This document shows positions 6,591 through 30,500 of a stretch of 42,082 nt of DNA, piece after piece. Within the stretch, counting starts at the first letter, position 1, and every line of letters starts with the position of its first letter. This stretch comes from Chrysochromulina tobinii (lineage: Eukaryota): assembly GCA_001275005.1 (NCBI GenBank), contig JWZX01002880.1:1-42082 (forward strand), in the 5' to 3' direction. Below the pieces are notes generated by a model. That model searched no databases. It saw only the letters and a program-made list of their open reading frames with translations, and was not told the origin of the DNA. Position numbers and translations under genes: made by a program.

Positions 6591-6774
6591 AGAGTGTGCC
6601 TCAGTCCGCAAGAATTACGGGTTCCGTCAAAAATGCTTCGTTCACGAACTTACGAGAAAGTCAACGGCCAATCTGACGTGAAACTCTGAAAAGTCGAGGC
6701 CGAAAAGCCCGCGCCAAGCAAAAAACATCGGTCCCATCCAGCCATCCGTCCTTCCTTTCACGCGTTTCTCGGCG

Positions 6775-9827: not shown

Positions 9828-10221
9828 ATGGCGAGCTTCGGCGGCGCTTTGCCTCTTCGAGGCGAGCCGTCTTCGGGCATGCCAGGGGGCGTGCCAGTGT
9901 TCAATCCAACAGACAGTGCGCACGCTCTCCTTTCGTCCGCCCATAACGACTACCTTGCCCCGCACGCCTGCTCCCACTCAACACTCGGGGCTTGCATGTG
10001 CCCGTGAATGCGAGCAGTGGACATCGATGTCGAAGACGGCATCATCGAGCACGATGCGCCGCAGGAGAGGACCGATGCAGACTTTTTCAACGGTGGGCTA
10101 ACTGCCCACACCGAGCACCGAACGCCTCAGCAACCGCGGCGACCTCCTCTTGATCCCGCTCATCCCCTCAATCCTGCACGCAGATTTTGGTGACGATTTT
10201 GATGACGAGGACCTCGACTGA
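9828..10221 (+). CDS. COPS9: COP9 signalosome subunit 9 (CSNAP/MYEOV2)-like acidic microprotein, 66 aa
   Basis: Exons 9828-9915, 10018-10092 and 10184-10221 (GT-AG) give MASFGG...PTDMDIDVEDGIIEHDAPQERTDADFFNDFGDDFDDEDLD*. The C-terminus matches the CSNAP ADFFNDFxDxFDDxD tail. Confidence 0.85.
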
Positions 10222-10682
10222 GCGCACGTATGTGCTCGACGACCTGGCCCGCTGAATAAGATAGACTACGCATCAGGCCGGCGCAACCATGCCTTGGGCG
10301 TCACGTTGCGCTGCGCCTGAGTCCTGTGCGGCACCCCGGTAGCCTGTGTGAGACAGCGCCATTGCGGTCGAGACGCGTCGTATTCCCTGAGCGAAAAAGC
10401 AGACCCTTTGAGCTATTTGAGCCCTAATTTTCACCATCCAAGCCACACCCCGTCCACGGTCCACGCGCGCGCGGACTGTATGGCGGAGTCCGGAGTCTGC
10501 TGTCTGGTGTCTCGCGATGATCTGGCATCTCGTCCGCGAGACCCGCGAGCCTGAGCGCGACACCCGGCGGTGGACATCGCGAGCTGTGAGACGTGCGGGC
10601 GCGGCCTGTGCACCTCTCTCGCTCCTCTCGCGTTTCGCGTCTCGTCGTGCCCGGCACCATGTGCCCTATGATTCATCAGATA

Positions 10683-12524
10683 TCAAGAGATCTCGCCGGC
10701 CTCCATGCGCCTCTTCCGCTCGGCTTGCATGCGTGCCACATTGAGGCCGGCGGCCGCCTCCTTATTGCCCGGCTCGAGAGCGAGCGCCTTGGTGAAGGCG
10801 GCACACGCGCCGGCGGGGTCCTCCTCGGCCTGGAGCGCGAGCGCCAGCCGGAAGTGCCCCTTTGCAAATTTGGGTTCGAGTTTGACGCACTCGAGCGCGT
10901 CCTCCCGGGCTTGGGCGTACCTGATGAGGGAGGCAATCAGCGGTGCACTCAGCGATGCACTCAGCGATGCACTCGAGCGCGTCCACGTGGGCTCGGGCGG
11001 ACCGTCCAAGCTTGAGAAAGCACGCGGCGCGGTTAGAGTAGAGTGTGTGCTGGCTCCCATCGAGGGTAAGGGCCTCGGTGTAGAAGACGGCAGCCTGCTG
11101 GTACTCATTCGCTTTGAAGGCCTCGTTCCCCTGTGCAGGAGGCAAGCCCATCAGAGGCGATCAGAGGCGATCAGAGGCGATCAGAGGCCTTCCGAGGCGA
11201 GGCCATCCGTGGCCATCCGAGCAAACGCCGTCCACGCAGGACACCTGCTTCTTCTTGTACTCGATCCGCGCCGCCATACGACCCTCTTCCGTCTGCTCTG
11301 CCTGCACTGTGGCCACGCTCGCCTGCTCTGCCTGCTCCTTGAGCATCGTCTTCATCTGCTCGCGCTCGGCTTGCGTGAGCTTCTTGCCTAATCCGGAGCC
11401 GAGCATGCCGTCGACGACCTCGTCGAGCTTGTCCGAATGCATGCGCGTGCGCCTCTCGAATTCGCGCACCTGAGGAGGGAGGCTATCATGGGTCAAGAGC
11501 GTTGTCCGAATGCATGCGCGTGTAATTCGCGCACCTCGCGCTCGGTCGTAGGGAACTCATTGCACAGTCGGATGACCAGCTCAGTCTCGAGCGGACCCGT
11601 CGCCGACAGCCGGCGTGTGATGAACTGGTCGATATCCTCCGAGAGCGCCATCTGCGGCCTCTCCTGTTGGAGCGAGTCAAAGTCGATCGTGGTGCCCAAC
11701 GCGGTGTCGTCTTCAAAAGCGACACTGGTGCTACGTGCTCCGGTGCTCATGAGACGGTCGAAGAAGTCGGCCTGCGCGAAAGTGAGCGCGAGGCCCGTGC
11801 ACTTGTCCACCTGTAGCGTCGCCGCCTTCGCGCCCAGCCGCACCGCCGCGCGCTCGCATCTCCACACCTCGACAATCTCCGTGAGCACCCGCGCCTGCAC
11901 ATCGATGCGAGTGTCGGTGCAGTGCTCGATCTGCACCTTGATCACGGAGAGCTCGGGCGCGAGCGTGAGCTTGCAGCCCTTGCATCCGCTGATGATCAGC
12001 ACGGGCAGCTCCGGCATCCCCTCCTCAGTCGGCGTGATCGTTCGCTCCACGTCTCTCAAGTCGCACAGCTTGAACGGCTTCGCGCGGCTCGGCCCCTCGA
12101 GCTCTCCGGCGAGGCGTGCCTTGGCCTCCTTGAGCAGCTCCTGCTTGCTCTTGGGTTCCGCGCGCTTGAAGCCGTCGAGGAGCGCGGGCGCCACCTCGGG
12201 CGCCGGGTCGGAGGCAAGGAGCCGATCCCACACGCCGGGCACTGCCTTGTGCAGCGTGATCACGAGCGTTGCGGCACCGCCATCCTTGTCGACGACCCAC
12301 AGCGACTCGCCGGTCACGATCACGGCCGAGAGCTCCTCCGAAGCCGGGAGTGGCGACGTGCCTGCCTCGTCCAGCGCGAGCTTTATTGTGCGCGCCGAGA
12401 AGGAGCACTTCACTGACGCCGAGGACGCCCCGAGCGGAACCTTGATGGTGACATCTTGCAGCGTCCGGTCCCAGGTATAGCCCGTGCCACTTCCGCCGCT
12501 GTATTGACCCGGTACGTGCATCAT
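10683..12524 (-). CDS. CS (p23/NudC-like) + C-CAP/cofactor-C-like beta-helix + TPR co-chaperone-like protein
   Basis: Exons 12524-11535, 11469-11245, 11130-11003 and 10920-10683 join in frame (526 aa). CS: YTWDRTLQDVTIKVP..ESLWVVD..LVITLHK..WDRLL. CAP-C: LIISGCKGCKL..LQVDKC. TPR: GNEAFK..AAVFYTEAL..LYSNRAACFLKLGRY..KGHFR. Confidence 0.85.
10921..11002 (-). other. Intron made of an exon duplication + 12-nt repeats + acceptor cassette
   Basis: The first 37 nt match the downstream exon start at 31/37. Then (TGAGTGCAYCGC) repeats, then TGATTGCCTCCCTCATCAG. Confidence 0.85.
11131..11244 (-). other. Intron with (TGATCGCCTC)n filler repeats
   Basis: GT-AG, phase 0, restores KKKQ|GNEAFK. Contains GGATGGCCAC, GGATGGCCTC and three TGATCGCCTC units. 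Confidence 0.85.
11470..11534 (-). other. 65-nt intron made of an exon duplication + acceptor cassette
   Basis: Starts GTGCGCGAATT and CACGCGCATGCATTCGGACAA, both identical to the downstream exon (8-nt gap between them). Ends TGATAGCCTCCCTCCTCAG. Confidence 0.85.
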
Positions 12525-13103
12525 CGTGCTGGTGCTATATCAAGCGAGTTACAGGCTGATCGGCACGAGGCCGTCCGCGGCGGCGAGCTCGGGCGTGGTA
12601 GCCCTATGAAGCGTTTGTGAAGCCAGAAGATTTCTAACGAGTCGATTCCTGAAGCGTGAAAGGACTCATCAGAGAAACCGGGGCGGCAAGTCAGTCATTC
12701 ACAGTTAGTCTTGTCGCGAGTCCCCCGCGCTCACCACACTCCGTCTCAAAGGACGGCTCCGCTGCCCTCGGTCAACACAAGTACTGAGTACTCGGGCCAA
12801 ACTCAAATCTCAATTGAGAATTGTTGGCTTGTGTGGTCGTGCTCTCCCCAAGTTGGGCGTCCGACCGCTGCCGCACGGTCGCCTGCAGTCGACCAGAGTC
12901 AGTCGGTCAGTCAGTCAGTACTCTGTGGAAGTTTTTTTTTTCAACTGACTCAAGTACACGTAAATTTTCGTTTTCTGTGAGGTCTGGGTCGTCCATGGGG
13001 TCGTCTGAGCTCGCCGATTCATATCATATCCACAAGCAAGCAAGCTAGTTAGTCGAAACACATATTCTCAGCGAGAATATGATCCCCATGCCCAGCCCCA
13101 CAT

Positions 13104-13883
13104 TCACTGCCACGGCCAGCGTGCCGCAACGAGCAGCGCAGAGAGGTCGGTCGTTGGCTCGCCTTTGCCAATGCATATGTCGAAGCGCAGCCCCGAGGCC
13201 CTCTCGGCCACCGCCTCCGCCATGACACGGGCGACATCCAGCCTCGAGATGGCGCCGTAATGAGGCAAAGTGTCATCATGTCCCACGATGAGTTCCTTCT
13301 CGCCCGGCCCGTACTTGCCCTCGATGCCGCACGGTTTCACGATCACGTTGCCAATGCCCGAGCTCATCAGGAAGGCCTCGGCGTTCAGTTTCCAAAACAA
13401 GATGGGGCCACCCATGAACGGTTTTGGATTCGGATCGGTGGTGCCCATGGATGAGCAGAGCACGACACGTTTCTCGCTCATTGGCGAAGACCCAGAAGCC
13501 ACCAGTGCCTTCACCTGGTTCTCGACTCCGATAAATTCGATCGCCTTTTGCTCGTCCTCGTCGGAACCACCAGGCGCCCCCACCGCAATGGCCACTGTGT
13601 CGACCCCGGCGAAGGCAGGCGTGAGGGTGGCGGGTACCGTGACATCGCCATAATAGATGCCCTCGGACGCGTCGCAAATCGTGCAGTTGAGGATCTTTTG
13701 GGCATCCTCATGAGCCGTCGATGTGTTGTAGATGAATGCACGAACCATGCCAACACGTGGATCAGCCTTGAGCTGTTTGTAAAGCAGGCTGCCGGTGCCT
13801 CCCGTCGCTCCTGTCACGATGACAGAGGGTGGTGTGAGCGGAAGCTGACCGAGAAAGCCGAATAAGTGCATGACACTGAGCAT
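13104..13883 (-). CDS. NAD(P)-binding Rossmann-fold protein (atypical SDR / NAD_binding_10-like), possible signal peptide
   Basis: VIVTGATGGTGS, GDVT..LTPAFAGVDTVAI, VVLCSSMGTT, WKLNAEAFLMSSG..VIVKPCG, ISRLDVARV. Start ATG inferred at 13883. Confidence 0.88.
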   Translation of the reverse strand: MLSVMHLFGFLGQLPLTPPSVIVTGATGGTGSLLYKQLKADPRVGMVRAFIYNTSTAHEDAQKILNCTICDASEGIYYGDVTVPATLTPAFAGVDTVAIAVGAPGGSDEDEQKAIEFIGVENQVKALVASGSSPMSEKRVVLCSSMGTTDPNPKPFMGGPILFWKLNAEAFLMSSGIGNVIVKPCGIEGKYGPGEKELIVGHDDTLPHYGAISRLDVARVMAEAVAERASGLRFDICIGKGEPTTDLSALLVAARWPWQ

Positions 13884-14789
13884 GAGAAAAAGAAGTGAAG
13901 TCGGTTTAGTCAAGTCGGTTAAGTCAAGTCCGTAAGGCGGTTCTGGTTGACCCCACCGTGGAGGCGCGTACGCGTCGTCTAACGGCCTCGTGCCCTCGTC
14001 TCGAGCATGGTTTGTTGGTTTCGAGAGGTTAAAGGGGTGGGTGGCCGTGTCGCCAAGATGCGTAACGCGTTTTCGCGTGACGCTATGCTGCCATGCCGTG
14101 TGCCGCATTGAAACGAGAGATGAGAGAGATTCATTTCAGATTTTGATTCCCATTGTCGACAATGATTGTCGAGGTTGCCGTGTGACGCCCAAAGTTACAC
14201 GGCTATGAACGAATGAACCCAACGTGAACGAGGGCCAGATTACAGGGGGGACGGTATCCATCATGGAACCAGACAAGGGGGATGCGGGAGAACCCAAATG
14301 GGGGGTCTCTCCGCCGTTAGTAGGGTTTTGGAGGGTGAAGGGGATTCCCAGGGGAAAGCCTTACAGGCAGCGGTTCGTATGCCGCCTGCGCCGCTGCGCG
14401 CGGGCTGATACTGCTCTCTTAATACTCACACGCCGACGGCTCCGCCTCGAGAGAAATTCCGCTGGCGGCTGACGGTCGGACGTTCGAATATCGAAGCGCG
14501 AACTTGAACTTGAACTTGAACGAAGCGCCGACGGTCGGACTTTCGAATATCTTAAATATCAACTTTTACCGGCCCGCCCAAACCGGGCGGCCGGCGGGTA
14601 AAATTTCGCGATCGACATTCATTCTTCAAAGCCAAATGTTCTCATTCGACAACTTAGACAACGGACCGGCGCGCACTTACGGAATTGCTGCCAAAAGCTC
14701 GGGGACCCTGGACCGTTCACAGTGCATCCCCACAGATCTCCTCCGCTCGCGGGAGACCTGTTTGAGTTCCATGTTGCCGAATCTTTCAC

Positions 14790-16307
14790 ATGTCCGCCGG
14801 CGATCCGCTCGCCTCAGAGCAAGACGCGCTCCTTCGTCAGTACTACCTTAGCCGGGGAACCCGCGACACGACGAGCCGGTGGTCGGCCGACGGCCCGAAG
14901 TCCATCTCGCCATTCGTGCCGTGCTGCGCCTCCCGCATCCCGACCGTGCTGCGCGCGGCGCGCTTGATGCCCGACGACGTGCTGTGGGACCTTGGGTGCG
15001 GCGACGGCCGACTGCTGCACCATGCGGCGGGTCAGTATGGCTGCCGATGTGTTGGCGTCGATATCGACGCGCCGTGCATCGCCGAGGCCAAGCAACGCGC
15101 AGTCGAGCAGCGCGTGGCGCATCTGTGCGAGTTTGCCACATGCGACCTGACGGCGCTAGAGCCCGGTGCGCTGCGGCCATCGCCCTCCGCCGCCGACGGA
15201 TGCGTCACACTCGGTGCGGCGGCCCTCGGTGACGACGATTCCTCCGACGGCGACGCTGTGCGGCAGCGGCTGCCGGCGCCGACGTGCGTGCTCATCTTCA
15301 TCACCTCGCATGGTCTGACTCGGCTAGAGCAGTTCCTGCACCGTGAATGGGCCGCGGGCGGGCTGCGCATCGTCACGTGCGTCGAGTCGCTCGCAAGCTG
15401 CTTCGACTTTGAGAGCGAAGACCCCTTATTTGCTGCCGACGAGGGACGTCATGAGTGGCCCATTTATGAGGCGCATGCGCAGCACGGCGTGTACGTTACT
15501 CCGCCGTGCGGCACGAGGGTCGAAGCTTGGGCGGAGCTCGAGCCGCTGCACCTGCCACGCATGCCCCCCACCCCCGCCGAGCTTGATGCGATCGAGGACG
15601 TGCATGCCAACTTTGCCCTCATCGACCAATTGCTCTCCTCGGCTGAGAGGCGCGCCATTGACGAGATCGGCGCGCGCTGTGCGGCAGCGGAGGAGGGGGC
15701 GGAGGGCGGGGGCGTGCCGGTGGCGGCGGCGGCGGGCGACGACGACGGTGGCGCGCTGAGCAGCTTCCTATTCGCGAGCGAGACGGCGGGCGCGAGCGAT
15801 CTCGACGTGATCTCGCGCGTCGAAGATTGCATGCATGCGGCCAAGGAGCACCGCGTTGTGCACCTGCATCGACACGGCGCCTTCCAGGCGGAGCTGCCGA
15901 GGCTGCTCGAGACTGTGCTGGCGCGCGTGCGGGCCGTCGACGCGGGCCGGTGGCGGCTGCTGGTAGGTCGCGCCGTCCACATACGCTCGATCGAGTGGCA
16001 TGTCTACCATCCCGGGGGCGCCGTATCGGCCACCGACCATCGCGATACCGGTAGCCTGTTGACCCTCTCGGCGCTCCTGACGAAACCAGACGAGTACGAG
16101 GGAGCGCGCTTTCAGTTCCCGATCGCTCCACGGGGCATCGCCGGCGCGGCTGCCGCAGCAGTGAGCCCAGCGCTCGCGTGCGGCGACGCGGTCCTGTTCC
16201 CGTCGGAGACACGTCATAGCGTGAGCACACTGCTGAAAGGAGAGCGACGATCCTTCGTCATCGAGCTCTGGGAGGGGCCACCCAATCAGCACAACCGCCA
16301 TCGATGA
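14790..16307 (+). CDS. Class I SAM methyltransferase (FAM173-like) fused to a 2OG-Fe(II) oxygenase
   Basis: N-terminal SPFVP..DVLWDLGCGDGRLL..CVGVDID. C-terminal YHPGG..DHRDTGSLLTL..YEGARFQF..GDAVLFPSETRHSVSTLLKGERRSFVIELW (HxD..H..R). Confidence 0.85.
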   Translation: MSAGDPLASEQDALLRQYYLSRGTRDTTSRWSADGPKSISPFVPCCASRIPTVLRAARLMPDDVLWDLGCGDGRLLHHAAGQYGCRCVGVDIDAPCIAEAKQRAVEQRVAHLCEFATCDLTALEPGALRPSPSAADGCVTLGAAALGDDDSSDGDAVRQRLPAPTCVLIFITSHGLTRLEQFLHREWAAGGLRIVTCVESLASCFDFESEDPLFAADEGRHEWPIYEAHAQHGVYVTPPCGTRVEAWAELEPLHLPRMPPTPAELDAIEDVHANFALIDQLLSSAERRAIDEIGARCAAAEEGAEGGGVPVAAAAGDDDGGALSSFLFASETAGASDLDVISRVEDCMHAAKEHRVVHLHRHGAFQAELPRLLETVLARVRAVDAGRWRLLVGRAVHIRSIEWHVYHPGGAVSATDHRDTGSLLTLSALLTKPDEYEGARFQFPIAPRGIAGAAAAAVSPALACGDAVLFPSETRHSVSTLLKGERRSFVIELWEGPPNQHNRHR

Positions 16308-16759
16308 CGTTGGGTGCACGAGGGGACGAAACACGAGGTGTTTCGCGAAGCTTCAGCGCGACCAGTTTCGAGATGGACGCGAGCGAGCGTTTCGCAAGCG
16401 GCAAGGTGTGCACCCGGACTGGCAGTCTCTTTACGTGTGCAAACTCATATCTGGGCATCAGAATGAGTGGTACACACGGGCGTGTGCATTGGTTATTCGG
16501 GCGGAGCCAGGATCTTTACGCTTTCAGCTCATGTACACCCGCGGACTGTAAATGACCTTTCGTGAAATTCGTCAACACAACTATTACCTCTGGGCTATCA
16601 GTGTATGATTCCTCCACCCCCATGGGCGCGCCCTATGTCACCCGCACCATGCCTCTCGCCACCCTCCAAGCCACGGACTCCTGACGAATGTGTCGCTCCC
16701 TGCCCTTGACCTGTAGGGTCGGACACGTACGGCGATGATGGCATCAATGCCAGCCACGC

Positions 16760-17089
16760 TCATGCGGCATCTTCCTCGAGCAGCACGTCAACAATCTTTG
16801 CAATGTCCTTCTCGCGCTCCATTAGGTCGCCCTGAACGTTCAGCTCGCTGAGCGCCTTCTGCGCCATCTTGATGAGCTCAGGATTCGTCGGGATGCTCCC
16901 ATAGTGCTTGGTATAAAAGTCTAGCACGCTTGCCACCAGCTCACCAAGTTGGTCGTCGTCCAAATCTTTGACAGTCTTTGGCAGCAACTTTGCGGCGTCC
17001 GCCGATTTCTGCGCGTACTTGTGCGCTCCACCTTCTATCGCGCGCTGCGTGTCCGGCGCTGCCCCCTCCGTGCTTTGCTCCGCTCCCAT
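16760..17089 (-). CDS. Small hypothetical protein (109 aa) with a predicted N-myristoylation start
   Basis: MGAEQS start (MGxxxS), normal coding-like composition, helical body. Confidence 0.65.
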   Translation of the reverse strand: MGAEQSTEGAAPDTQRAIEGGAHKYAQKSADAAKLLPKTVKDLDDDQLGELVASVLDFYTKHYGSIPTNPELIKMAQKALSELNVQGDLMEREKDIAKIVDVLLEEDAA

Positions 17090-17394
17090 CGCGTTCCCCT
17101 CGTTCGCGCGTCTAAGCCGCGACGAAAAGACAGAACAACTTTGAAACTTCCCTCGGCGATTCCGCGTTTGGGTTGTGCTGCACTCGAGGGACCCTGAGCC
17201 AAACCGAACCCGCACGCACATGCTGCAATGTACGCGTCAGTACACTACATGTACTCCTTACCGCTGAAAACAGTGAGGCGACGTGATCGTAAATGCGGCT
17301 CGACGCGGGTGCGCAATGTCCAATGATGTGCGCAGTGCGGCCCGGCGCCCGCACACTTAGGATGCCCAAGTACATACACTTAGGATGGATCTCG

Positions 17395-17455
17395 GGAGAT
17401 CTCGAGCTGGAGATATCGAGCTGGAGATCTCGAGCTGGAGATCTCGAGCTGGAGA
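17395..17455. repeat. Tandem 14-nt minisatellite GGAGATCTCGAGCT (~4.5 copies)
   Basis: Directly visible downstream of the ZIP gene stop; the unit contains AGATCT, CTCGAG and AGCT palindromes. Confidence 0.9.
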
Positions 17456-17545
17456 ACTATGCTCGTCCTCGGATTGCATGCACCGCCCGTACGTTCGCGC
17501 GCCGCGGCTGCGCACGCCTCAGCGCACCGGCTCGGGCTGTGGCGC

Positions 17546-18667
17546 TCATAGGCTGGGGTTCGCGGGCGTCTCCCAATCCTGGAAGAGCACGAGCGAGATC
17601 GCCATGATCACCATGCCGAAGATGAGGCACGCGGTCGCTTTCGCCTGGTTGCCCATGTACCGTTGGGCCGCGGGCAGCAGCTCGTGGCACACGATGAAGA
17701 CCATCATGCCGCCCACCATCGAGAAGACGATGCCAAAGACCAGGTCTGTGAAGACGGGCTGCAGCACGGCAAAGCCCGCGATGCCGCCGATCGGCTCCGT
17801 CAGTCCGGAGAGGAACGACCAAAAGAAGGCCTTGGTCGGGCTGCCGGACGCATAGTAGATGGGCATCGCGACGCACACGCCCTCGGGGATGTTGTGCACC
17901 GCGATTGCCACGCCGAGGCTCGCGCCGACCCGGGCGTCATTGACAGTCGCCAAGAAGGTCGCGAGTCCCTCTGGGAAGTTGTGGATCCCGATGGCGAGTG
18001 CGGTCATGATGCCCATGCGTCCGAGGCGCTTCTTCTCTTCGGCATCGGCCATGTCGGCTGCTGTTATCGCCGCATCGTGTGTGTGCGCTACCACCATGGC
18101 GTCGTGCGATCGCACCACCACCTTGACCTGCGCTACCTCTGCCGCTGCCGTCCCTGTGGAGCTGCCTGCACCACTTGCCTCGTCCGAACAGGTCGACGTC
18201 GCCGCCTCTTCTTCGGCCGTCGAGCATTCGTGCTTCTCATGCGAGTTGCCACCGGGGAACCCATGCGCGGGGCACACATCCGCGTGTGTACCGCCGCCAC
18301 ATCTGCTCAACCAGTCGACGAGCACCTCGAGCAGCGCGCAGAAAAGCATACCGCAGAAGAAGCAGGTGGTCGTCACCGCGACGGCGCCGCCCTGGCTGAA
18401 GCCAGCATCCGACGCGGATATGGCTGCGAGCGACTTGACGAAGATCTCGATGAACGAGACGTACAGCATCACGCCTCCGGAGAGTGCAAGCGCGACGGCA
18501 AGCACGATCTGTTGCGGCATGCTCTTGAAACAATAGGGAAAGAAGACGAGCGCACCGCCGACCGAGGTGGCGAGGCCGGCACCGATGCTCACGCCGATTG
18601 CAGGGAGTATCCTCTCCGTGCATGCCCACGCAATCGGGGCGTCACATGGACCGCTCGAGTTCGACAT
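17546..18667 (-). CDS. zupT: ZIP-family (ZupT/GufA-type) zinc/metal transporter
   Basis: AGLATSVGG, LSGGVMLYVSFIEIF, ALAIGIHNFPEGLATF, AIAVHNIPEGVCVAMPIY, SGLTEPIG, GMMVFIVCHELLP. Confidence 0.95.
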   Translation of the reverse strand: MSNSSGPCDAPIAWACTERILPAIGVSIGAGLATSVGGALVFFPYCFKSMPQQIVLAVALALSGGVMLYVSFIEIFVKSLAAISASDAGFSQGGAVAVTTTCFFCGMLFCALLEVLVDWLSRCGGGTHADVCPAHGFPGGNSHEKHECSTAEEEAATSTCSDEASGAGSSTGTAAAEVAQVKVVVRSHDAMVVAHTHDAAITAADMADAEEKKRLGRMGIMTALAIGIHNFPEGLATFLATVNDARVGASLGVAIAVHNIPEGVCVAMPIYYASGSPTKAFFWSFLSGLTEPIGGIAGFAVLQPVFTDLVFGIVFSMVGGMMVFIVCHELLPAAQRYMGNQAKATACLIFGMVIMAISLVLFQDWETPANPSL

Positions 18668-18970
18668 AAACACCTTTTTAGGTGCGTTGGATGCAATCTT
18701 TGGAAATCTTGCAAAAAACCGCGCCAAAAAAGGCTCGCCTGATTTCGTCTGACGTTTTGCTTTTCAGTCGTGAGAACATGACACAATTCCTACAAGTACA
18801 CGCACCGTAGGGACCCTACAGCAGTTGGCGCAGCTCAACCGCACGTGATCTGAGCCGCGCGGGGGGACAGCTTGTGTGTAGCCGGGTCTGGCCACCCTCC
18901 TGCACCGTGCCGTGCATGGGTGGTCGTCGGCTGACCCGTCAGCTCCGGCGGAGGCAGCCACGGCATGCGC

Positions 18971-19923
18971 TCAAACGTAGGGGAACGTCGGGTGCCCGAG
19001 GGCGCTCTGCGTGACGACCGCGCTGAAGGCGAGCATGGCCAGCCGGCCGTGAGTGAGCTCAGCGAGCTTGTATTTCTCCTCGGTCGCGGGCGTGAGCAGT
19101 TTTAGCGGATCGAAGCCGAAGTCGCCCGGCTTGCGGGAGGGGTTCTCGCCGTAGATCTGAGAAAACTTAATCGTCTCGAACGTGCCAACAAACAGCAGCA
19201 GCAGGAAAAGCTCGTACTTAGCGGTCGTCTCGTGCGCAGTGAACGAGGTCAGGCCAGCGTACTTGGCGCCCGGGAACTTGAGGCCCAGGTCCACCGAGAC
19301 ATACCCAGTCCACGCGAGCATGCACAGGCGGCCGTGCTCCAGCTCCGCCTCGCGCATCCACTTGATGTTGCTCGGTGAGGAGAGGCCCATTGGGTCGAAG
19401 CCAGCGTTGCCGACCATGCCCTCCAGGTGCTGCGAGCGCATGGCAGTGGCGGCGGCAGCGCGCGTGAGCCGTGGAGCGGAGATCGGGCTGGTGTGCAGAG
19501 AGGCTGCCGCGTGAGGCTGCTTGCTGCTGCTGCCGCTGCGAAGGTTGCTGCTGCTGCTGCTGCTAACAACGTTCATTCAGCCTTGGCTGCAGCTGCTGCG
19601 GCAGCTGCTGCGGCTTGCAGGAGCCCCACACGCGCTAGTCGCGCTGCATGAATCGCCGACTGTAGTCACAGAAGCAACTCCGAAGGCTGTCGAGGTGGGT
19701 GCGATGGGGCGTGACGCACCGCGGGGCACTCTTGCCACGGCAGCGCCTTGGACTTGGCCATCATCGAGACCGAGGCACGCGGCGCCACCGGCGCCGGCGC
19801 ATGGAAGGCGCACGCAGATGAAGCAATCGAGAGCTGCGGCAGGCCACACGCGGCGACCGGTCAGGCAAATGCGTAGCATTGGAGCACCAGCACATGAAGC
19901 GTGAAAGCGAACGAGCGCACCAT
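18971..19923 (-). CDS. Fucoxanthin-chlorophyll a/c light-harvesting protein (Lhcr-like)
   Basis: Exons 19923-19921 (ATG only), 19833-19720 (LSIASSACAFHAP..AKSKALPWQECPA) and 19429-18971 (HLEGMVGNAGFDPMGL..REAELEHGRLCMLA..PGDFGFDPL..ELTHGRLAMLA). Intron 2 carries CAG-type repeats. Confidence 0.93.
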
Positions 19924-20184
19924 TTCGCGAGATTCGATCACCGCCTCTTTCATTTAAGCGCCGGAAAAGGAATGTTCACACAGGCTTGGGGTCTGGTGAG
20001 GTCGTCGAAAGGGAGGTGCAGTCGAATGTAAGGTGCAGTGAAGATGGATACAAAGACTCCTTATTTTGGTAACCTGCGCAGGGCGTCGGCATTCTTGTTG
20101 ATGCTTGTAGTACGAGCTGCAGGACGAGGAACAGCTCTCCTCGACCGACGTTGCTAGTGCCGCTTGCGGTGGCGACGTGCCCTC

Positions 20185-22203: not shown

Positions 22204-22516
22204 TGCTCGTTCGCATTTTTAGGAGGTGTCCACTCTACATACTACAACCGTCGACGTCAAGTTAGTATCAAGGTGTCCCGTTACAAACCGGCTTCAACCG
22301 TATCAAGGTCACCCGTTACAAACCGGCACACGCCTCGCGATGTCGCGCGTCTGATTATCCTCGGACTCAACACGAGCGATCGGATTATCCGCGGCGTCGA
22401 TCCGATCGGCATGACGGATGTCGCCATGCTTGATGGGATTGGGAATGTTTGGCGCCCCGGGCCCCAGGCGGCTCTCTCTCTCTCGTCTACTGCACTGTCG
22501 TAGGCTACTGCTCGTG

Positions 22517-23869
22517 TTACAGCGGCGCGGCGCAATTGTAGCAGAAATTGGCTTCGGGGCTGTGGCCGGTCGCACCACACAGCCCGCATGTTGCGGAGCT
22601 CGCGTAGCCCTGCAACGGCTTGGCACCTGCCGTGGCGCCGCTGCTGCCTCGGTTGACGATGGCCTCAGCAAGGCTCGAGAGCTGCACGGGGATGATGGCG
22701 ATGCCTGCAAGAATGGAGACGCTCACGACGAGCCGCCCCTCGGCTGTCACAGGCACGATGTCGCCGAAGCCGACGGTGGTGAGCGTCGTCAGCCCAAAGT
22801 AGAGGGCGGTGAAAAAGTCGGGCAATTTTTCGTTCTGCAGGTGCTCGACCTTGTAGATCAGGCCGCTCGACACGAAGAGCAGGGTGAAGATTGAGGAGAC
22901 CACACGCGCCACCTCGAGTTGATAGGGCTGGACGTCGAGCGGGTTGAAGCCCAGCGCCGCCTCAAAACGTCGGAACGAGCGAATGTCCTGTACGTATCGC
23001 TGGAGTCGGAGCACACGAGCGAGTCGCAGAAAGGCGAAGCCGTCATCCTGCAGGTCAGGCAGCGGCACGAATCCGTCGTAACCCTCGAGCAGCATCGGGT
23101 CGTACATCGGCCCGACTGTCGTGGTGGTCACTAAGACGGACAGCAAGGTCGGTGCGAATGAGAGGAGGTCGATCAAACTGGTGGGCTCGAGCAGATACTT
23201 CAATGAAAAGGAACGGCTCCACCAGCGCAGCACGTACTCGACCAAGAAGACCACTGTGAACACGGCCTCGACGTTATTGAGCCAGAAGCGCGGCTCGTTG
23301 CCCAGCTCAGGAAGCGTGCCCACCGCGTAGCACAGAGCGGTCACGAGCACAGCCACCAGCGAGATGAGCTCAAAGCGAGGCGCGTTGATGGCGCGGAGCA
23401 CGGTGCGACTGCCCCAAACGGAGCCGCCGGAAAGCAGCTCTTGGAGCCGCTGGAGCTCCTTCTGGTTCCACATCGACGACGCTCTGTCGGCCGAGTACAG
23501 CTCCATCAGGCTCTCAACAAACTCGTCGCGTGAGAGCTTCCCGTCGCGGTTGACATCCAGCCAAGTTAGGAGTAGCTCGGGGTCGAAACCCGCTCGGGCC
23601 AGCTCTTCGGAGTCGAGTGCCGCGTTGGCATCGCCGTCAATCGCGGTGAAGGCCGACTCGAGCGCAGCGCGCAACGTCTGCTCATCTGGAAGGCCGTTCT
23701 CGGAGACGGCGGCCTTCGTGTGTGTCTCCATGCACGCCACTCGCCCAGAGCGGCTGGTGGTGAATGTCTGCTGCGCTTGCACTCTCTGATGAAAGAGCTG
23801 CGGTTGGGGTTGAATGAATGTCGATCGTATTGGAGCGAAGCCGATGGCGGCAAGCAAAACCGCGTACAT
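22517..23869 (-). CDS. 6-TM voltage-gated K+ channel with an EF-hand pair and a C-terminal Zn-ribbon, possible plastid presequence
   Basis: EF loops DGDANAALDSEE and DVNRDGKLSRDEF; S4 FLRLARVLRLQR; pore TTLTTVGFGDIVP; CGLCG..H..ANFCYNC. Start MYAVLLAAIGFAP inferred. Confidence 0.9.
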   Translation of the reverse strand: MYAVLLAAIGFAPIRSTFIQPQPQLFHQRVQAQQTFTTSRSGRVACMETHTKAAVSENGLPDEQTLRAALESAFTAIDGDANAALDSEELARAGFDPELLLTWLDVNRDGKLSRDEFVESLMELYSADRASSMWNQKELQRLQELLSGGSVWGSRTVLRAINAPRFELISLVAVLVTALCYAVGTLPELGNEPRFWLNNVEAVFTVVFLVEYVLRWWSRSFSLKYLLEPTSLIDLLSFAPTLLSVLVTTTTVGPMYDPMLLEGYDGFVPLPDLQDDGFAFLRLARVLRLQRYVQDIRSFRRFEAALGFNPLDVQPYQLEVARVVSSIFTLLFVSSGLIYKVEHLQNEKLPDFFTALYFGLTTLTTVGFGDIVPVTAEGRLVVSVSILAGIAIIPVQLSSLAEAIVNRGSSGATAGAKPLQGYASSATCGLCGATGHSPEANFCYNCAAPL

Positions 23870-24075
23870 GAGGCTTCTTCCGGCCGCGGCCCACGACCTT
23901 CGCTCCAGATGCAAGAAAGATGCCTTCGACGGAAAAAGTAAAAAAGGCAAGCACACAAAAATCCTTGCGAGTCCACGTCAAAGATCGTCGGACACACCTG
24001 AAGCATTTTCAGTAAACCTCATGAACAGTAAACCTCATGAATTCACAGCTTACATTCGTCTGAAATTGAAGCCCG

Positions 24076-25293
24076 ATGGCGACCCCGGTGCGCCAGCAGA
24101 CGCTTGACGCCGGCCCGCGAGGCGGCGCCAACCTCGAGGCGATGTCGGCGCTCTCAACCGGCACAAAGGGCAAGATCCAGTTCTACAAGGGTGATGCGGA
24201 CGGCACGCCCATTGGCAGCCACAATGTGTACGACATCAAGGGCAACAAACAGAGCGTGGGCATGGTGCAGACGTGGAATCAGTGCACGAACATGATCATG
24301 ACTTCGCTCGACAAGCCTGAGAGCCTTCTCGTGATGGACACGGAAAAGGGCGCGGTGCATGCGGAGCTCGACATCAAGCGGCAGCAGAGGAACTGGAAGA
24401 TGTCGATCGACTCGGTCACGCCGATGCAGAAGTTTGAGCAGTACCGGCCGACGCAGGAGATCATGCTCTTCGGCCTGGGCGACGGCGGCCAGACCGTGTT
24501 CCAGCTGCACCACGACGCGCGCGCGGGGGAGAATATCGAGGAGCACGTGATTCGTGCCGACTCACACCGCAAGTACAAGTCGTACACCTTCTCATGCCAC
24601 GCGCAGACGCGTGGCGGCAACCTCGTGCTCGGGCGCACCGACGGCGCCGTCGCGCTCTACGACGCCATCATGCAGTCGGAGACGGCCTCGTGCGTGCTCG
24701 ATGGCATGCCCGGCCCGGTGACCTCGATCGACGTGTCAGCGGACGGGTCGATGGTCTGCTGGACCACTCCGGAGTTCGTCTTCTTCACGAGCCCGTCGGC
24801 TGAGCACTGGACGAAGGAGTGGAAAAAGTCGATGGGCAAGCCCGTCGTGCTGCAGCTCGCCCCCACCCCGGAGGACAAGGGACGAATGCTCCTCGGCAGC
24901 AGCGACAGCCGGAGCGGCGGCAGCGGCGCCACCTCGGCAGCAGCGGAGCCCGAGGAGGCAGCGGCGGAGGCGGGGCCCGATTGGCGCTCAGTCAAGTTTG
25001 ACGCGGGCACAGCGAAGGAGGACTCGGGAAAGGCTGAGCGCGAGATTGTCACGTACTGCGGCAACTGGCAGATGCGCTGGTCTGTCACGCAGGCCCTGAA
25101 GGCCTGGGATGCCCTCGCTGCTGCCAAGGAGGGGGACGCGCCGCCGCCCGGGATCTTGTATGGCACGGCGACCAGCATGGCAGGCATGGGCGCGGCCGTC
25201 TCGCGCCACATGACTGTGCAGAGCGGTGCGAATGGAGAGGACCTCGATATCGTCGCTCTCGAAGGCGAGATCGTGCGCAGCCTCCGGTTCTGA
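24076..25293 (+). CDS. VID27: VID27/CYPRO4-like WD40-type beta-propeller protein
   Basis: FSCHAQTRGGNLVLGRTDGAVALYD..LDGMPGPVTSIDVSADGSMVCWTT..KFD..EREIVT resembles the VID27 C-terminal domain. Confidence 0.7.
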   Translation: MATPVRQQTLDAGPRGGANLEAMSALSTGTKGKIQFYKGDADGTPIGSHNVYDIKGNKQSVGMVQTWNQCTNMIMTSLDKPESLLVMDTEKGAVHAELDIKRQQRNWKMSIDSVTPMQKFEQYRPTQEIMLFGLGDGGQTVFQLHHDARAGENIEEHVIRADSHRKYKSYTFSCHAQTRGGNLVLGRTDGAVALYDAIMQSETASCVLDGMPGPVTSIDVSADGSMVCWTTPEFVFFTSPSAEHWTKEWKKSMGKPVVLQLAPTPEDKGRMLLGSSDSRSGGSGATSAAAEPEEAAAEAGPDWRSVKFDAGTAKEDSGKAEREIVTYCGNWQMRWSVTQALKAWDALAAAKEGDAPPPGILYGTATSMAGMGAAVSRHMTVQSGANGEDLDIVALEGEIVRSLRF

Positions 25294-25369
25294 GCCTGCC
25301 CAGGGGGCTCTCTACCAAGGACGACGGCCGCGACGAGGAACGAGGAACGAGCTGTGCCTGAGGGTGCGA

Positions 25370-25480
25370 GCGAGAGGGAGATCACCCTGTGACGAATTCT
25401 GAGCAAGTTGCGCGTGATCTCCCTCTCCGAGAGCGAGGGAGATCACCCCGAGAGCGAGAGGGAGATCACCCATGTCACAG
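25370..25480. repeat. GAGAGGGAGATCAC direct and inverted repeat cluster
   Basis: Three direct copies, one inverted copy (GTGATCTCCCTCTC), and a CCCTGTGAC...GTCACAGGG inverted pair. Confidence 0.7.
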
Positions 25481-25855
25481 GGCCACCGGCGCATGCCTGT
25501 GTAATGCACGACTTCTGAGCTGCCGGTACTGCGCAAGAAGAACATCCGCCGCAAGTTTACGCCGAGCCCGTGGTGTCAATGCGTTCTTGTGGCTCGGCTG
25601 ATATCCGAGATATCCTGGCTCGTGCGGCCGCTGTCGTGAGTCGTGGTGTCGTGCGCATCTAAAATCTTCGTTGTGAACATGCTTTAGCGCTAATTATAAT
25701 ACTCATCCCGACTTCCGTTTTGTGTACTTGAACAATAACGTTCCAGAGTTAAGGAATCGCCCGGTCGGGTGGGCGTCCGCACGCTCCTCGATGCTCGGAC
25801 GAATCTCCGGCTTGCCTCCCTCCCTTGCCCCTTGCACGTGAGAGACTGTTTGCTC

Positions 25856-27418
25856 TCACTTCTTCTTCTTGCCCTTGCCTCCTTTCTTGGGCTTGTCGGG
25901 AAGGCGCAGCGTGAGCAGCTTCTTGGGCAAGACTGGTGAGAGGAACTCGAGCGTGACGGTGTCGTCGGTGCGCACACCGACTGCGTGCAGTACGAAGTCG
26001 TCCCCAAGCGTGCGCCCGCCCCAGTTGATCCACATCGTCGTCTCAACCGTCTCTCCTTTGAGTACCTTCGTCTCGGGCACCATGACCTCCTCCGAAAGAG
26101 CCACCACCTGGCTCTCGACCACAGTCAGGCGTCGGCAGGCATCATCAGGCGTCATCAGAGGCGTCATCAGAGGCTAATCAGTGGCCATCAGAGGCCATCA
26201 GCGCACCTGACTCTCGACCACGGTCACAGGCGATCCGTTGGTGATCCGGTACGCGAGGGCTGCGCCCTTGCCGCCCGCGAGCGCGCCCATCCCTCCCTCG
26301 ATCAGGAGCTCGTCGGCCACCACGAGCGCCGAAGTCCCCGCCTTCGGGTCTGCCTTGGCCTTCGCGAGAGTGAGAACGGTCATCCCCGCGCGACGCACGC
26401 ACACGCCGTCTGCGGTGAACCATGTGTGCTCGCCCTGCTGGAGTGACGCGCAATACGCACGCTTCAGGTCGAGGACCGTTGTGGTCTCGTCCACGGGGAA
26501 CGCGCGCGTGTGCAGCAGCGGGCAGTTGACGCGGACGCGCCCTAGCCCGCGCGAGAGCAGCAGCCACGGAGCGACGCGCGTCAGCTTCATATCGAACGTC
26601 GTGTCCTTGGCGAGGCGTAGCTCGTCCATGAGGCTCAGGTGGTCGTTCAACGGTAGCCCGTGCAAGTAGAGTTCGATTCGGAACGAGGGCGAGAGTCGTA
26701 CGCGCTCGTAGATGAGTCGCTTCACGTCGGCGATGCGCAGCCTGAAGTTGCTGGCGCTCGCCGTGGCGCGCGCGACTTGGTCGTCGTCGGCGGCGGCGGC
26801 GTCGACGGTTTGTGGCGCGGGCGGTGGGGGAGCCCGGTAGCCTAATAATGTGGGGATGTAAAAGGCCATCCGGCCGTAGAGTAACGAGACGACATGCACC
26901 GTGCATCCCTCCTTGGGCACCACGTTTGGCTTTGTCGGTGCGGTGGAGGGGCGAGCTCGAGGCGTCACGTCGTCGTCGTCGTCGTCCGTTGGCGGCGGCT
27001 TGACAGTCACACCGACGCCGATCATCGAAGGGATGCGGTCGAGGAAATCCTCGCGGTCGAGGACGGCGCGCAGCTTTGGTTGCGAGTCTTCGAGCTTTGT
27101 TTGGTATTGGCTCTCGTGACGGCTGTTGGCGTAGCTGCTGAGGAAGAGCGGGTCAGATTGAAGCAGGGAGAGGCGGTGCAAGGGCTCGCTCGCTGATCTC
27201 GATACGCGGGGCGGCTCCCTCGAAGTAAGCGGCGTGAAGCAGGTGATCTGGCTGCTCGTCAAGCTCGCGTGCACGCTGCGACGTGTGTCGTACCCAGTGT
27301 AGTTGCTATCATAGCGTGGTCGTGCGACCGTGGATTTGCCGCCAAGATCGGCGATGGTCCAGCAAGAATGCCTTGCTGCGACGGCGCTGGTGGGGCGTAG
27401 AGTGCTCTCAGGACGCAT
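25856..27418 (-). CDS. Protein with two ubiquitin-like domains and a basic C-terminal tail
   Basis: Exons 27418-26207 and 26107-25856. UBL1: LRIADVKRLIYERV..IELYLHGLPLNDHLSL. UBL2: VDETTTVLDLKRAY...INWGGRTLGDDFVLHAVGVRTDDTVTL. Confidence 0.7.
26108..26206 (-). other. Intron made of TGATGGCCTC-type repeats + a copy of the upstream exon end that supplies the AG
   Basis: The last 20 nt TGACTGTGGTCGAGAGCCAG match the upstream exon end TGACCGTGGTCGAGAGTCAG at 18/20. Confidence 0.85.
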
Positions 27419-27574
27419 TTTGCGCTGGATTTTACCAACTGACAACTAAGTGCGTGTGGTGCATGCATCTGTTTGGAACACATCCAAAACGCGCTTTCTG
27501 CAGGCTTGACGTCAGCGTCCTTCAGCGCCGGCCGCTTTGTCGCGCGCTGCTGACCAAAGCAACGCAGTATCGCC

Positions 27575-30500
27575 ATGCCTGCGGTCAGCGCCAAGGAGAA
27601 CAGGCTGGTTGCCGAAGCCCAGAAAATCCTCTGTTCCGGAGCCCCGTCGTCAGCGCAGGAGATCTTTGACGCCATCAAGGGGGCCGGGCTGCGCTGGTCA
27701 CGCGGCCTATCCATAGCCGACGTGCGGAAGGCAAGAATAACAGTGCAGACGAGCATGCAAGAACAAATGCGTGTCGACGAGGCTATCGGACGCTTCCAGG
27801 AACAGGCGGCCAAGCTACTTCGCAGCGACCAAGAGGCTGCCGGAGTGGAGGTTGGTGAGGAAGAGCAGGACGCACCTGATGCGATTGAAGGCTTCGTTCG
27901 TTTCGACAACAGCCCGAAGGTTGAATCGAGCGCCACGCTGAGCCACGTGGTCGGCGACGGCCTGCGCGAGGCAACCGTCCGCCAGCTCGCATACTTTCTG
28001 ATCCAGGCAGTCACGACCGAGGGCAAGCGCAGCACGAGCGGCGGCGAGAGGTTCAACGTGTCCGTCAGAGGGCCTTCGAAGACGCGCGCAAAAGTGACCG
28101 ACAATAGCAACGGCACGTACCTCGTCGCATGGCGCCCGCACTGCTCGGGCCCCTACTCAATCACCGTGACGCTCGGTGGCGAGCTGCTCCCGGGCTCGCC
28201 TCACCTGGTGCATGTGACAAACTCGTTGCCCTGCGCCTCCAAGTGCGAGGTGAGCGGCAAGGCGCTGGCTGAGGCAGTCTCACGCGTGCCGCAGACGTTC
28301 GAGATCCGCTTCCGCGACCGGTTCGGTCAGACCGCGAGTGCCGTCGAGCTCGATCTCTTTGTGGAGGCAGTGCCGCCGAACAGCCCACGCGGGCGGGAGG
28401 TGCCGCTAACGGCCGCGCAACGATTGCTCATCGAGCAAAAGGAGGCGGCCGAGGCGGCGGCGGCGGCGGCGGCGGCCAAGGGCAAGAAAGGAGATGGCAA
28501 GGGGGGGCAGCTCAAGGGACGAGCTAGGCTAGCAAGCAAGGAGGTAGGGACGACGACGACGACGACGCTAGTAGTGGTACCGCCGCCGAAGGCCGGAGTA
28601 TACGGAGCTTCAGTGCCACCGACAAGGCGCGAGAAGCGCGTGAGCAATGAGAGTGGGACGACGCCGCCAGTGGCGCCGCAGCCGCTGCCGTCCTCTCCCG
28701 GGCGGACCTCGCCCGTGATCTCGCCCGTGACGGCCTCAGCGGCGCGTGTGGAGCAGCAGCAGTTGCAAGCGAGAGCAGCAGGGCCCATGGGCAAGTGGCT
28801 CGCCGGTCCTCTGAGCGAGTGGGCCTATGCGATCGACCAAGGGCCAGGCAGCGCCGATGAGGCTCGGGACGCCGCTGTCGAGAACGAGCCAGGAGAGATT
28901 CGGTACCGTACAATCCGCGTCCGGGTGGGTGAGAAGCCGCTCATCCTGCGCACCGCGCCTGCCAAGGGAAGTGCTCCGATCGGTCGCCTGCTGCCTGGTC
29001 AGGTGGTGACCGTCCTCGAGGAGCACATCTCAGCGGACGGCGAGGTGCGTGCATGCGTCTCATGATCGCCACGTTGATTGCCACGGATGACCCGCCTTGC
29101 ATGCAAGTGCTCACCACAGTGCGCGTCCCCACAGGTGCGTGCATGCGTCTCGCTCGATTCGGTCGAATGGTCGATAGACGGCCACGAGGAGCCATTCATC
29201 CCTCCATTCATCCCTCCACTCTCGGCACGCTCGAGCTCACGCATGAGCAGCGACGGCAGCGGCGCGCTGAGCGGCCGTTCTGGTCAGCTCTCGAGTCGCT
29301 CCTCAGGCCAGCTCTCGAGTCGCTCGTGCAGCTCCTCTGGGGGAGGAGCCCTCAGCAGCCGTGTCGGCGGCGGCGAGGGCGGCGGCACGCGCCACAACCG
29401 CGCGCGACACCCCTTCGGCTCGCCTCGAGCCTCGAGCCGCAGTGGGGCGCTCACGGCACGCCAAGCCGCCGCAGCGTCACCTCAAGCTGCTCTCATCGAC
29501 CAGCCTCTGCAGGCGCCCACAGCCGCCGCCGCCGAGATGACGGCGACGAGCGAGGTCAGCCGCTCGTCGTCTGGCGCCAAGTATGGCGCGTTCAGCGCCA
29601 AGGACGCCAAGTATGGCACGTTCAGCGCCAAGACGGCCGAGGGGGGTACCGGTACGGCGAGGGCCTCCGGCGAAGGCGCCTCGCGTGAGAGAGCCTCGTG
29701 CAAGATAGGCTGGGTGACGCTGATGAAGGAGGGGCGCGTGAAGCTCGTCTCATCACGTGTGCAGCTGGGTCCAGGGTCGCGCCGACAGTACTCAAGCCAA
29801 TGGGAGCGACAGAGGCATACGAAGCAGGCGCTCGCGGACCCGAAGCCATCGGTGGACGCGGGGGTGCTCATCGAACGAGAAGTCGGCGCCGATCCGAGCG
29901 GCATTGGATTCGGCTTCGGCGGGGTCGAGCCTGGCACCTTGCATGCGCATGGCGAGCTGCATGAGGTCCATCGGGTCTCGTATGCCCTCTCGCTCGCCGG
30001 CACCTACTTTCTGCACGTGCGGCTCAGGCATCAAGCGTTGCCTTTGCCAGGCTCTCCATTCAAGCTCGTTGTGCGACCGGGCGCCGCGTGCGCACGCACG
30101 TCGCGCCTGCTACCTGGCGTGCTACGCGGGAAGGTGGGCGGCGATGCCGACTCGGGCTGTCAACAGACTCTGCAATGCGCCGACCAAGTGGGCAATGAGT
30201 GCATCGCGGGTGGCGCACCTGTAGAGGTCAGATGTTTCACGGAGGACGGCCTGGTGGCCGCGCCCGGCATGGAAACGACCGTGACCGACCTCAAGGACGG
30301 CACGTACACTATCCGCTGGCGCTCCAAGTTTTCGGGCAAGTTCCGCGCGAGTGTCCAAATCGGCGACGAGGACGTGCGCGGCTCGCCCGTCCAGATTGCG
30401 CTCGTGTCGTCCACACCAGAGCTCAACAAGTCAGAGCTCTCGGGCGGCGGGCTCACGGGCGCCGTCGCGGGCGAACGCTCGCACTTTCGCATCAAGTTCG

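Follow-up and report, generated by a model that had tools for sequence, protein, structure and literature searches.

Exon duplicates joined to pieces of other introns mark likely scars of copy-and-patch repair in Chrysochromulina tobinii

Many short introns of the alga Chrysochromulina tobinii are likely the scars of copy-and-patch repair that makes new introns. In the window, by which we mean the whole analyzed stretch of 42,082 nt, four introns (A to D) in three host genes each carry a copy of flanking exon sequence, with the matches listed below, exactly as given in the first-pass annotation of this DNA.

10683..12524, minus strand: host gene 1, CS and TPR protein of 526 aa, with introns A, 11131-11244 and B
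10921..11002, minus strand: intron A, 82 nt, GT..AG; exon copy, TGAG/TGAT 12-mers and acceptor module
10966..11002, minus strand: exon copy of A, source the next exon (10884-10920), 31/37; provides the GT donor
10921..10939, minus strand: acceptor module of A, TGATTGCCTCCCTCATCAG, 19 nt, shared; predicted branch point and 3' splice site
11131..11244, minus strand: filler-type intron, 114 nt, without a long exon copy; spliced in 3/3 RNA runs
11470..11534, minus strand: intron B, 65 nt; exon copy, short filler and a variant of the acceptor module; spliced in 3/3 RNA runs
11502..11534, minus strand: exon copy of B, source the next exon (11429-11469); 11 + 21 identical, net 8-nt gap
25856..27418, minus strand: host gene 2, unnamed protein with a weak ubiquitin-like match; carries D
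26108..26206, minus strand: intron D, 99 nt (predicted); GT, TGAT 10-12-mers and upstream-exon copy
26108..26127, minus strand: exon copy of D, source the upstream exon end (26207-26226), 18/20; provides the AG acceptor
27575..32185, plus strand: host gene 3, filamin-repeat protein; carries C
29045..29134, plus strand: intron C, 90 nt (predicted); 17-nt exon copy, family body and C-rich acceptor
29045..29061, plus strand: exon copy of C, source the next exon (29135-29151), 17/17 (19 with the AG); provides the GT donor
29071..29119, plus strand: body of C, about 49 nt, common to a multi-locus intron family; includes the core GCATGCAAGTGCTCACCAC at 29099-29117
39187..39338, plus strand: filler-type intron, 152 nt (predicted), without a long copy, in a PRP39-like gene (Pfam); removal restores a 638-aa frame

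The assignment of the donor to the copy in A, B and C and of the acceptor to the copy in D was also correct, yet both copies have AG|GT in B, C and D. The 19-nt acceptor module presumably supplies the branch point of A, and removal of each of the four introns restores a single reading frame. In local alignments compared with 1000 random window segments each, the copies gave p values of 0.003 (A), 0.001 (B), 0.001 (C) and 0.004 (D), and six other introns of the window (two filler-type and four conventional, the ends of some placed 1 nt off) gave 0.05-0.98 in the same test. The window contains 32,355 GT..AG pairs with lengths of 60-180 nt, of which only C and D reach 15/17 in-register matches, the cut-off being an ungapped one of which A and B fall short. 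RNA contigs, whose support is confined to the introns of host gene 1 (C and D lie outside the RNA cover of the three runs), skip B and the intron at 11131-11244 exactly in 3/3 RNA runs; the DNA run shows no such skipping. The junction check by RNA that had been called for is exact for B. For A, splicing is implied: one RNA contig departs from the genome at 11001 and continues for another 508 letters, and the A-spliced protein is also encoded by transcript-sized contigs (P0038, P0039). For C and D, one more run, a metagenome, yielded no contig bridging the junctions, which speaks neither for nor against their splicing. The product of the spliced TPR gene (526 aa) has the length of the annotated C. 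tobinii protein KOO26227.1 and agrees with it in the first 330 residues, and its alignment with homologs contains no gap traceable to its three junctions.

An excess of exon-intron direct repeats, which the first-pass annotation had predicted, was found in a wider set of 134 loci (among the matches listed), picked by one motif and not from the whole genome. A next-exon copy is present in 59/129 introns ending in the same 19-nt motif, against 0.12% in a permuted-pair control, and GT or GC begins 54 of these 59 copies (background 4% and 13%). A further 59 of the 129 have no long copy, and GT/GC still follows 48 of them. A direct repeat flanks 161/394 filler blocks versus 0.8% in the control, nested and multimer cases included. 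The clean events, 93 in 53 loci, have duplications of continuous lengths between 13 and 51 nt (median 25), the lower bound being the score cut-off below which shorter ones escape detection; the description of the duplications as long and variable is thus well founded. In register, 66 of the 93 are spliceable, with the junction at the start of the duplicate in 43, in its middle in 11 and at its end in 12; 64 of these 66 are at least 65 nt long, and their total lengths cluster at 65-95 nt. The longer the duplicate, the shorter the insert tends to be (rho -0.57, p 7e-7). Of the 12 short events that are not spliceable, 9 have a length divisible by 3 (p 0.004). The products had been taken to be precisely spliceable, which applies to the in-register events and not to the short in-frame inserts. 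Because such inserts survive without in-register splice sites, precise spliceability looks like a filtered outcome.

Of the 93 events, 53 could be scored for microhomology at the left joint, where the mean is 2.5 nt and simulation of blunt joins gives 1.3 (p 2e-4); 15 of the 53 have none. At the right joints the mean is 3.0 versus 1.3 (n=56, partly splice-site driven), and 2.4 in the 30 right joints not ending in the acceptor (p 0.03). The copies diverge from their exons by about 5%, which is no clock, since unequal exchange can refresh copies (P0055). Donor-site improvement was not detected in the copies, as mismatches occur at 15/220 positions in +2..+6 and at 40/762 further in (p 0.40), and no paralog empty sites were found among the loci, where the 5 non-self matches are module matches.

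The inserts between the repeats are pieces of a few common intron modules, with several unrelated modules mixed. Modules of 19-50 nt recur in nearly identical form at dozens of unrelated loci and do not resemble the exons around them; end-to-end identity of introns is low (best match at another locus: median 0.72, at least 0.8 in 4/72). The core module has a sharp left edge, and one intron family has a constant body of about 50 nt. The interiors had been described as TGAT-rich filler without TIRs, derived from a recurring template. The absence of TIRs was confirmed (mean 4.3/10 matches versus 4.15 when shuffled; at least 8 in 1/70 introns), and the interiors are indeed stereotyped and widespread; the description as filler fails for C, with its family body, and the single template is replaced by several modules with either end fixed. 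Three end patterns were seen, namely a fixed 3' end, a fixed 5' end and both ends variable, the second forming a mirror class with a variable 3' end and a 6-32-nt upstream-exon copy.

In 647 kb, intron modules occupy 188/202 repeat-flanked unique spacers, the other 14 being non-module spacers. Oriented modules are sense in 191 cases versus antisense in 3, the orientation being undecidable for 144/338. A few antisense cases were found by eye, among them an insert of core and duplicate in locus L026; the "antisense" calls of the codon model at L070 proved wrong on inspection. Loci L038, L071 and L009 carry 51-63-nt inserts of core and duplicate in frame, with open frames and without GT-AG in register, and these exonic inserts are apparently unspliced, judging from sequence. 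In L002 an exon piece from further downstream is embedded within the filler, and filler copy number differs between assemblies. Copying from neighbouring introns was rejected as a source, since beyond 300 nt their filler likeness is only slightly above the between-locus level, as were telomere repeats, since the modules are unlike TTAGGG by eye. Nothing like a longer element body was found next to the modules, and Rfam returned nothing at gathering score in L009 and L064, with three weak matches below it. Three motifs had 0, 1 and 1 matches in viral contigs, of which one is the end of a GC-rich contig and has the core, and the other, in AT-rich DNA, is a chance hit. Bacterial genome contigs gave 14 single motif matches, which were taken as chance.

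The introns had been expected to be young rather than ancient, and comparison with relatives, whose empty sites are inferred from proteins and not from DNA, agrees. D is missing in sister-lineage sequences of 93-95% identity, one of which lies on a 10.7-kb contig, and in an outgroup (45%, 12-kb contig), which points to at least one recent gain, at a site that the sister lineage has empty. Similarly, the sites of A, B and 11131-11244 are read through in 45-52%-identical relatives (9-97-kb contigs). The positions of B and C are common to the sister lineage (for B, in a 97%-identical sister), so that B and C are older than the split and not all four introns are very young. A sister lineage has a fuller copy of B, so the 8-nt gap most probably reflects a deletion that came afterwards. 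Among the few orthologs examined, no copy-free intron was seen at the same position. Short-read assembly can be confused by direct repeats and low-complexity filler; yet the chance that an assembly artefact or chance repeats lie behind the exon copies is negligible, as independent assemblies show the same structures, the sister lineage has them in common, the copies have diverged from their source exons, B is spliced exactly in RNA and the exon-copy controls are close to zero.

Of the marks of introners of the DNA-transposon or MITE type, a short fixed TSD (3-9 bp), TIRs and end-to-end identity are all missing here. Two marks of introners in the broad sense are present, namely splice sites carried or co-opted (66/93) and a lineage-specific gain (D). 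C. tobinii is among the species surveyed in a 2025 table, which enters 0 introner families for it (PMC12130899, supplement file 7), and the footprint is not described in the available parts of PMC12480563, PMC6759080 and PMC13685798. The systems below are likewise compared as described in the accessible parts of each source. Introners from marine Chrysochromulina MAGs, of the same genus, form short introns of about 70-110 nt with a strong gene bias, and the figured family resembles C. tobinii in lacking a TIR and in bringing one splice site with the insert while the duplication provides the other (Gozashti 2022; PMC9860276). However, its duplication is 4 bp, whereas that of C. tobinii is 13-51 nt and variable, either or both splice sites are co-opted and the introns are mosaics. 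Introner-like elements of Polarella glacialis and Symbiodinium likewise recruit splice sites from the duplication, in several frames and with GT, GC and GA donors, but each of their classes has a defined element and a duplication whose length is fixed (3-8 nt), in contrast to the long variable duplication of C. tobinii, where both insert ends can vary (bioRxiv 10.1101/2020.10.14.339549). New introns of Daphnia pulex, which include polymorphic gains and were ascribed to staggered double-strand break repair, likewise have direct repeats at their ends and nested events, and direct repeats above background flank the introns of C. tobinii too; the Daphnia repeats are 4-17 nt (90 introns), whereas those of C. 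tobinii are longer and far commoner, with inserts from a few shared modules (PMC4202315). For an origin in C. tobinii by end joining at a double-strand break, the excess of joint microhomology is only an indirect sign. In tandem genomic duplication, the duplicated AG|GT gives both splice sites, as here, but the foreign insert is absent, unlike the foreign shared modules between the copies in C. tobinii; template switching onto another intron was proposed as a route in the same work, without such a footprint (PMC3443670). For sister stwintrons of Hypoxylaceae, excised intron RNA was proposed as break-repair filler that gives rise to related new introns, but these are seamless, with TIRs, blunt breaks and no long duplication, unlike C. 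tobinii (PMC8469720).

The architecture, the abundance, the shared modules, the joint microhomology, the sense bias and one empty-site gain are shown by the data. To account for them we lean, at somewhat better than even confidence, toward a mechanism in which microhomology guides the copying of intron fragments into staggered breaks and splicing then filters the products. After a staggered break, repair synthesis would use short microhomology to switch to an intron already present (probably to its RNA), copy part of this donor and rejoin the gene upstream of the exit point, leaving a 13-51-nt duplicate. Most donor introns have AG|GT at their end, so a return to the gene at a G|GT would set the donor site at the start of the duplicate, and splicing would therefore restore the mRNA exactly. 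Copying of the donor's 5' end would yield the mirror class, as in D, and copying of its middle only would place the junction within the duplicate. Selection would retain either inserts of spliceable length (from about 65 nt) or short ones that keep the frame, and later slippage and unequal exchange between direct repeats may expand the filler, form multimers and refresh the copy. As every new intron would be a possible donor, the process would be self-feeding; end joining of the Pol-theta type and a reverse transcriptase borrowed for the purpose are the candidates for its enzyme. Against the copying reading, the joint microhomology could partly be a product of later slippage and is absent from some left joints, about half of the motif-ended introns have no long copy, filler is barely more alike between neighbouring introns than between loci, and neither an enzyme nor a pair of donor and target nor a new event was observed.

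Exact register, sense bias and gene restriction fit equally well with the overwriting of pre-existing introns, for which they need no extra assumption: an introner-like intron would insert with a short duplication, and a template switch to an intron-less copy (cDNA or allele) would then replace its 5' or 3' part by exon, as an aborted intron loss. Such a history, which we regard as unlikely, is favored by the copy-free filler introns (11131-11244, 39187-39338 and 59/129 of those ending in the motif), the family with a constant body and the clustering of total lengths. However, the in-frame exonic and antisense inserts of core and duplicate have no GT-AG in register, the 11/66 middle-junction cases would need the interior to be retained through two switches, D and its copy were gained in the short time since the split from a 93-95%-identical sister, and the copy-free precursor was not seen at the same position in the few orthologs. 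Non-LTR insertion yields variable target duplications and joint microhomology, and both are found in C. tobinii. It is nevertheless rather doubtful that a non-LTR retrotransposon, through its target-primed reverse transcription, mobilized a dedicated non-autonomous element (or several), SINE-like or introner-like, a process that would leave variable duplications, truncated inserts and repeat tails. The acceptor modules, whose 3' end is fixed while the 5' end varies, and the sharp left edge of the core agree with such an origin, but the mirror class, the mixing of unrelated modules, the lack of a longer element body or of an Rfam match at gathering score in two loci, and the near-complete sense and gene bias speak against it; selection may hide further antisense or intergenic insertions.

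Plain tandem duplication of an exon piece with a proto-splice site, with filler grown by local slippage toward branch-point-like repeats, is the sole intron-gain route shown in vivo according to the available text of PMC3443670. The variation of filler copy number between assemblies and the AG that precedes the donor in 23/45 single-unit cases are consistent with this route. However, it has only a slight chance of being the explanation here, weakened by near-identical modules at dozens of loci that do not resemble the local exons and by the rarity of non-module spacers. In addition, AG is missing before the donor in 22/45, which argues that the acceptor came with the insert.

What appears to be new, relative to the accessible parts of the published mobile-intron scans, is a footprint that unites target duplication with pieces of other introns. 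It is frequent and readable in a cultured alga with a public genome, and break-repair and template-switching models of intron birth become directly testable. If four per 42 kb, extrapolated from one window, held over 59 Mb, the genome would contain roughly 1,500-14,000 such introns, much of a total that is near one intron per gene. The footprint is also a warning that gene models mis-splice such junctions. More tentatively, thousands of introns may have been gained without a transposon, with the alga's own intron-RNA fragments serving via microhomology as repair templates at transcribed genes, in a self-feeding process that multiplies introns as recombining pieces and is invisible to similarity-based introner scans, of which a telomere-filler variant may operate in other haptophytes or protists.

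As the first-pass annotation had claimed, four introns of the window carry copies of the adjoining exon:

Intron A, 10921-11002, minus strand, in the gene for a CS and TPR protein (10683-12524, minus strand); copy matching at 31/37 nt
Intron B, 11470-11534, minus strand, in the same gene; 11 + 21 nt with a net 8-nt gap
Intron C, 29045-29134, plus strand, in a filamin-repeat protein gene; 17/17 nt
Intron D, 26108-26206, minus strand, in a gene with a weak ubiquitin-like match; 18/20 nt

Removal of each intron restores the reading frame, and the spliced TPR product has 526 residues, the same as the annotated C. tobinii TPR protein. Compared with 1000 random window segments, the exon-copy matches of A to D gave p 0.001-0.004, and those of six other window introns p 0.05-0.98. 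RNA contigs skipped intron B exactly in 3/3 runs, as they did the filler intron at 11131-11244, and neither was skipped in the DNA run; splicing of intron A is implied by the RNA contigs, and C and D, which no contig covered in the 3 RNA runs, are predicted introns, supported by the restored frame. Elsewhere in the window, a conventional-looking 290-nt intron (19430-19719) in a putative light-harvesting-type gene was spliced in 3/3 RNA runs. Contigs over two genes (17600-18600 and 22550-23710) carry many substitutions, in DNA and RNA runs alike, and are divergent alleles or paralogs. Upstream of the TPR gene lies a short, very high-copy repeat (12738-12790; summed contig depth ~48,000 vs ~40, DNA run), two relatives of which were observed in other loci, again within non-coding-looking DNA.

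The excess of exon-intron direct repeats expected from these four cases was borne out in related loci. Metagenome contigs scanned for the 19-nt motif that ends A and B yielded at least 134 loci and at least 245 motif matches (189 with enough flank); among the matches listed, 59 of 129 distinct motif-ended introns contain sequence copied in register from the next exon, vs 0.12% of permuted pairs. A motif-independent survey found 394 filler blocks, vs 7 in reversed sequence, and a direct repeat flanks 161 of them, nested and multimer cases included, vs 0.8% of controls. Removal of nested events, and of 20/113 in which the repeat is itself filler, left 93 clean events at 53 loci, with duplications of 13-51 nt (median 25). 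GT, GC or GA plus AG stand in register in 66 of the 93; the junction falls at the start of the duplicate in 43, in its middle in 11 and at its end in 12. Fractions from these loci are skewed to intron-rich regions. GA donors made by duplication were predicted in 6/76 events (loci L127, L045, L032 and others).

The inserts are fragments of a few modules:

TGAT/TGAG repeats, unit 10-12 nt
Acceptor module, 19-21 nt
24-nt core preceding a C-rich acceptor
Family whose ~50-nt body is constant, beginning at GT and closing with 6-32 nt copied from the upstream exon

The TGAT-rich filler first ascribed to all four introns is represented among the modules, but intron C consists of its 17-nt exon copy and the body of the last-named family; the reported absence of terminal inverted repeats (TIRs) held in the introns tested. 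The core is duplication-flanked in 59/94 copies (control 4/436), and 188 of 202 repeat-flanked unique spacers (647 kb) come with intron modules. Whole introns are mosaics. Copy-plus-filler multimers are frequent (14/59), filler copy number varies from assembly to assembly, and at one metagenome locus (L002) a fragment of an exon from further downstream sits inside the filler. CTGAT and GCTCAC in the modules resemble the branch-point consensus and are putative branch points. The acceptor module at 10921-10940 forms a small inverted repeat (CTGAT...ATCAG), with its AG end the reverse complement of a filler unit, hinting at a fold-back origin. Individual loci showed further features: a degenerate region (L006:14300-15700) is dense with core-plus-duplicate insertions among fragments similar to a PRP6-like gene; the last exons of an intron-dense gene (L064, minus strand) have an antisense core at the stop codon, and its translation resembles a family A DNA polymerase, with no Pfam match for a 42-aa piece; and a GC-rich contig from a viral collection (L135:4300-4554), which possibly derives from the host or from an endogenous element, ends in the core with a duplication-flanked repeat.

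Joint microhomology averages 2.5 nt on the left (p 2e-4) and 3.0 nt on the right, vs 1.3 in simulated blunt joins; part could have been added by later slippage, and 15/53 left joints have none. On balance, we favor a process in which fragments of introns are copied into staggered breaks under the guidance of microhomology, and the inserts would then be selected for splicing or preserved frame. Duplicate and insert length trade off (rho -0.57), and 64/66 spliceable events reach at least 65 nt. Of the short events that lack in-register splice sites, 9/12 have a length divisible by three; three short non-spliceable events sit in long open frames and others are antisense, and these look like raw insertions that may have survived without becoming introns. 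In 54/59 cases the copy begins with GT or GC, which suggests more exactness than expected of random cutting with tolerated small in-frame shifts. Among modules with an assigned orientation, 191 lie sense to the gene and 3 antisense (144 more have no assigned orientation); this strand bias, together with gene bias, would point to RNA as the copying template, but could also come from selection.

The main rival, in which an intron-less template overwrites introns already in place, accounts for splice register and strand without extra assumptions but leaves exonic and antisense inserts unexplained, and we regard it as unlikely. A LINE-driven element, which would suit the variable duplications and leave the mirror classes unaccounted for, is somewhat less probable again, and duplication alone, which offers no account of the shared modules, is hardly credible.

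Ages were compared using proteins called directly from DNA, with protein records as the basis. The sister lineage (93-97% identical) shares B and C but, like an outgroup at 45%, reads through D, so that D would most simply be a recent gain and B and C older; as the sister carries a fuller copy of B, the gap in B is most simply a later deletion. Conservation in distant relatives, as of ancient introns, was not seen: all three TPR-gene intron positions are apparently read through at 45-52% identity on 9-97-kb contigs. One allele (protein record P0055) has a second unit carrying a refreshed copy, and the copy-exon divergence of ~5% is therefore no clock. Intron A is present in C. parva, whose public model (P0036) retains ten residues of the exon copy, likely a mis-splice caused by the duplication. 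Protein P0017, a 50%-identical homolog, continues at its C terminus into TLTLALTLTPTL, which would be compatible with another haptophyte having an intron that contains CCCTAA telomere-type repeats.

Full-text literature searches yielded no description of the copy-plus-module footprint, although subscription papers or supplements may hold one. A 2025 survey gives 0 introner families for C. tobinii (PMC12130899). Duplication and template-switching models are reviewed in PMC3443670; further sources are PMC11282704, PMC8469720 and, for genome size, PMC4580454. Introners are reported from marine Chrysochromulina MAGs, and the one figured lacks a TIR and duplicates 4 bp of target (PMC9860276); each Polarella class has a duplication of fixed length, 3-8 nt (bioRxiv 10.1101/2020.10.14.339549), and Daphnia gains show 4-17-nt repeats (PMC4202315), in contrast to the variable 13-51 nt of the events described here. 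The copy-bearing introns behave like an introner yet lack three of its defining properties, namely end-to-end similarity, short fixed-length duplication and TIRs, and are therefore classed as a variant mode of intron gain.
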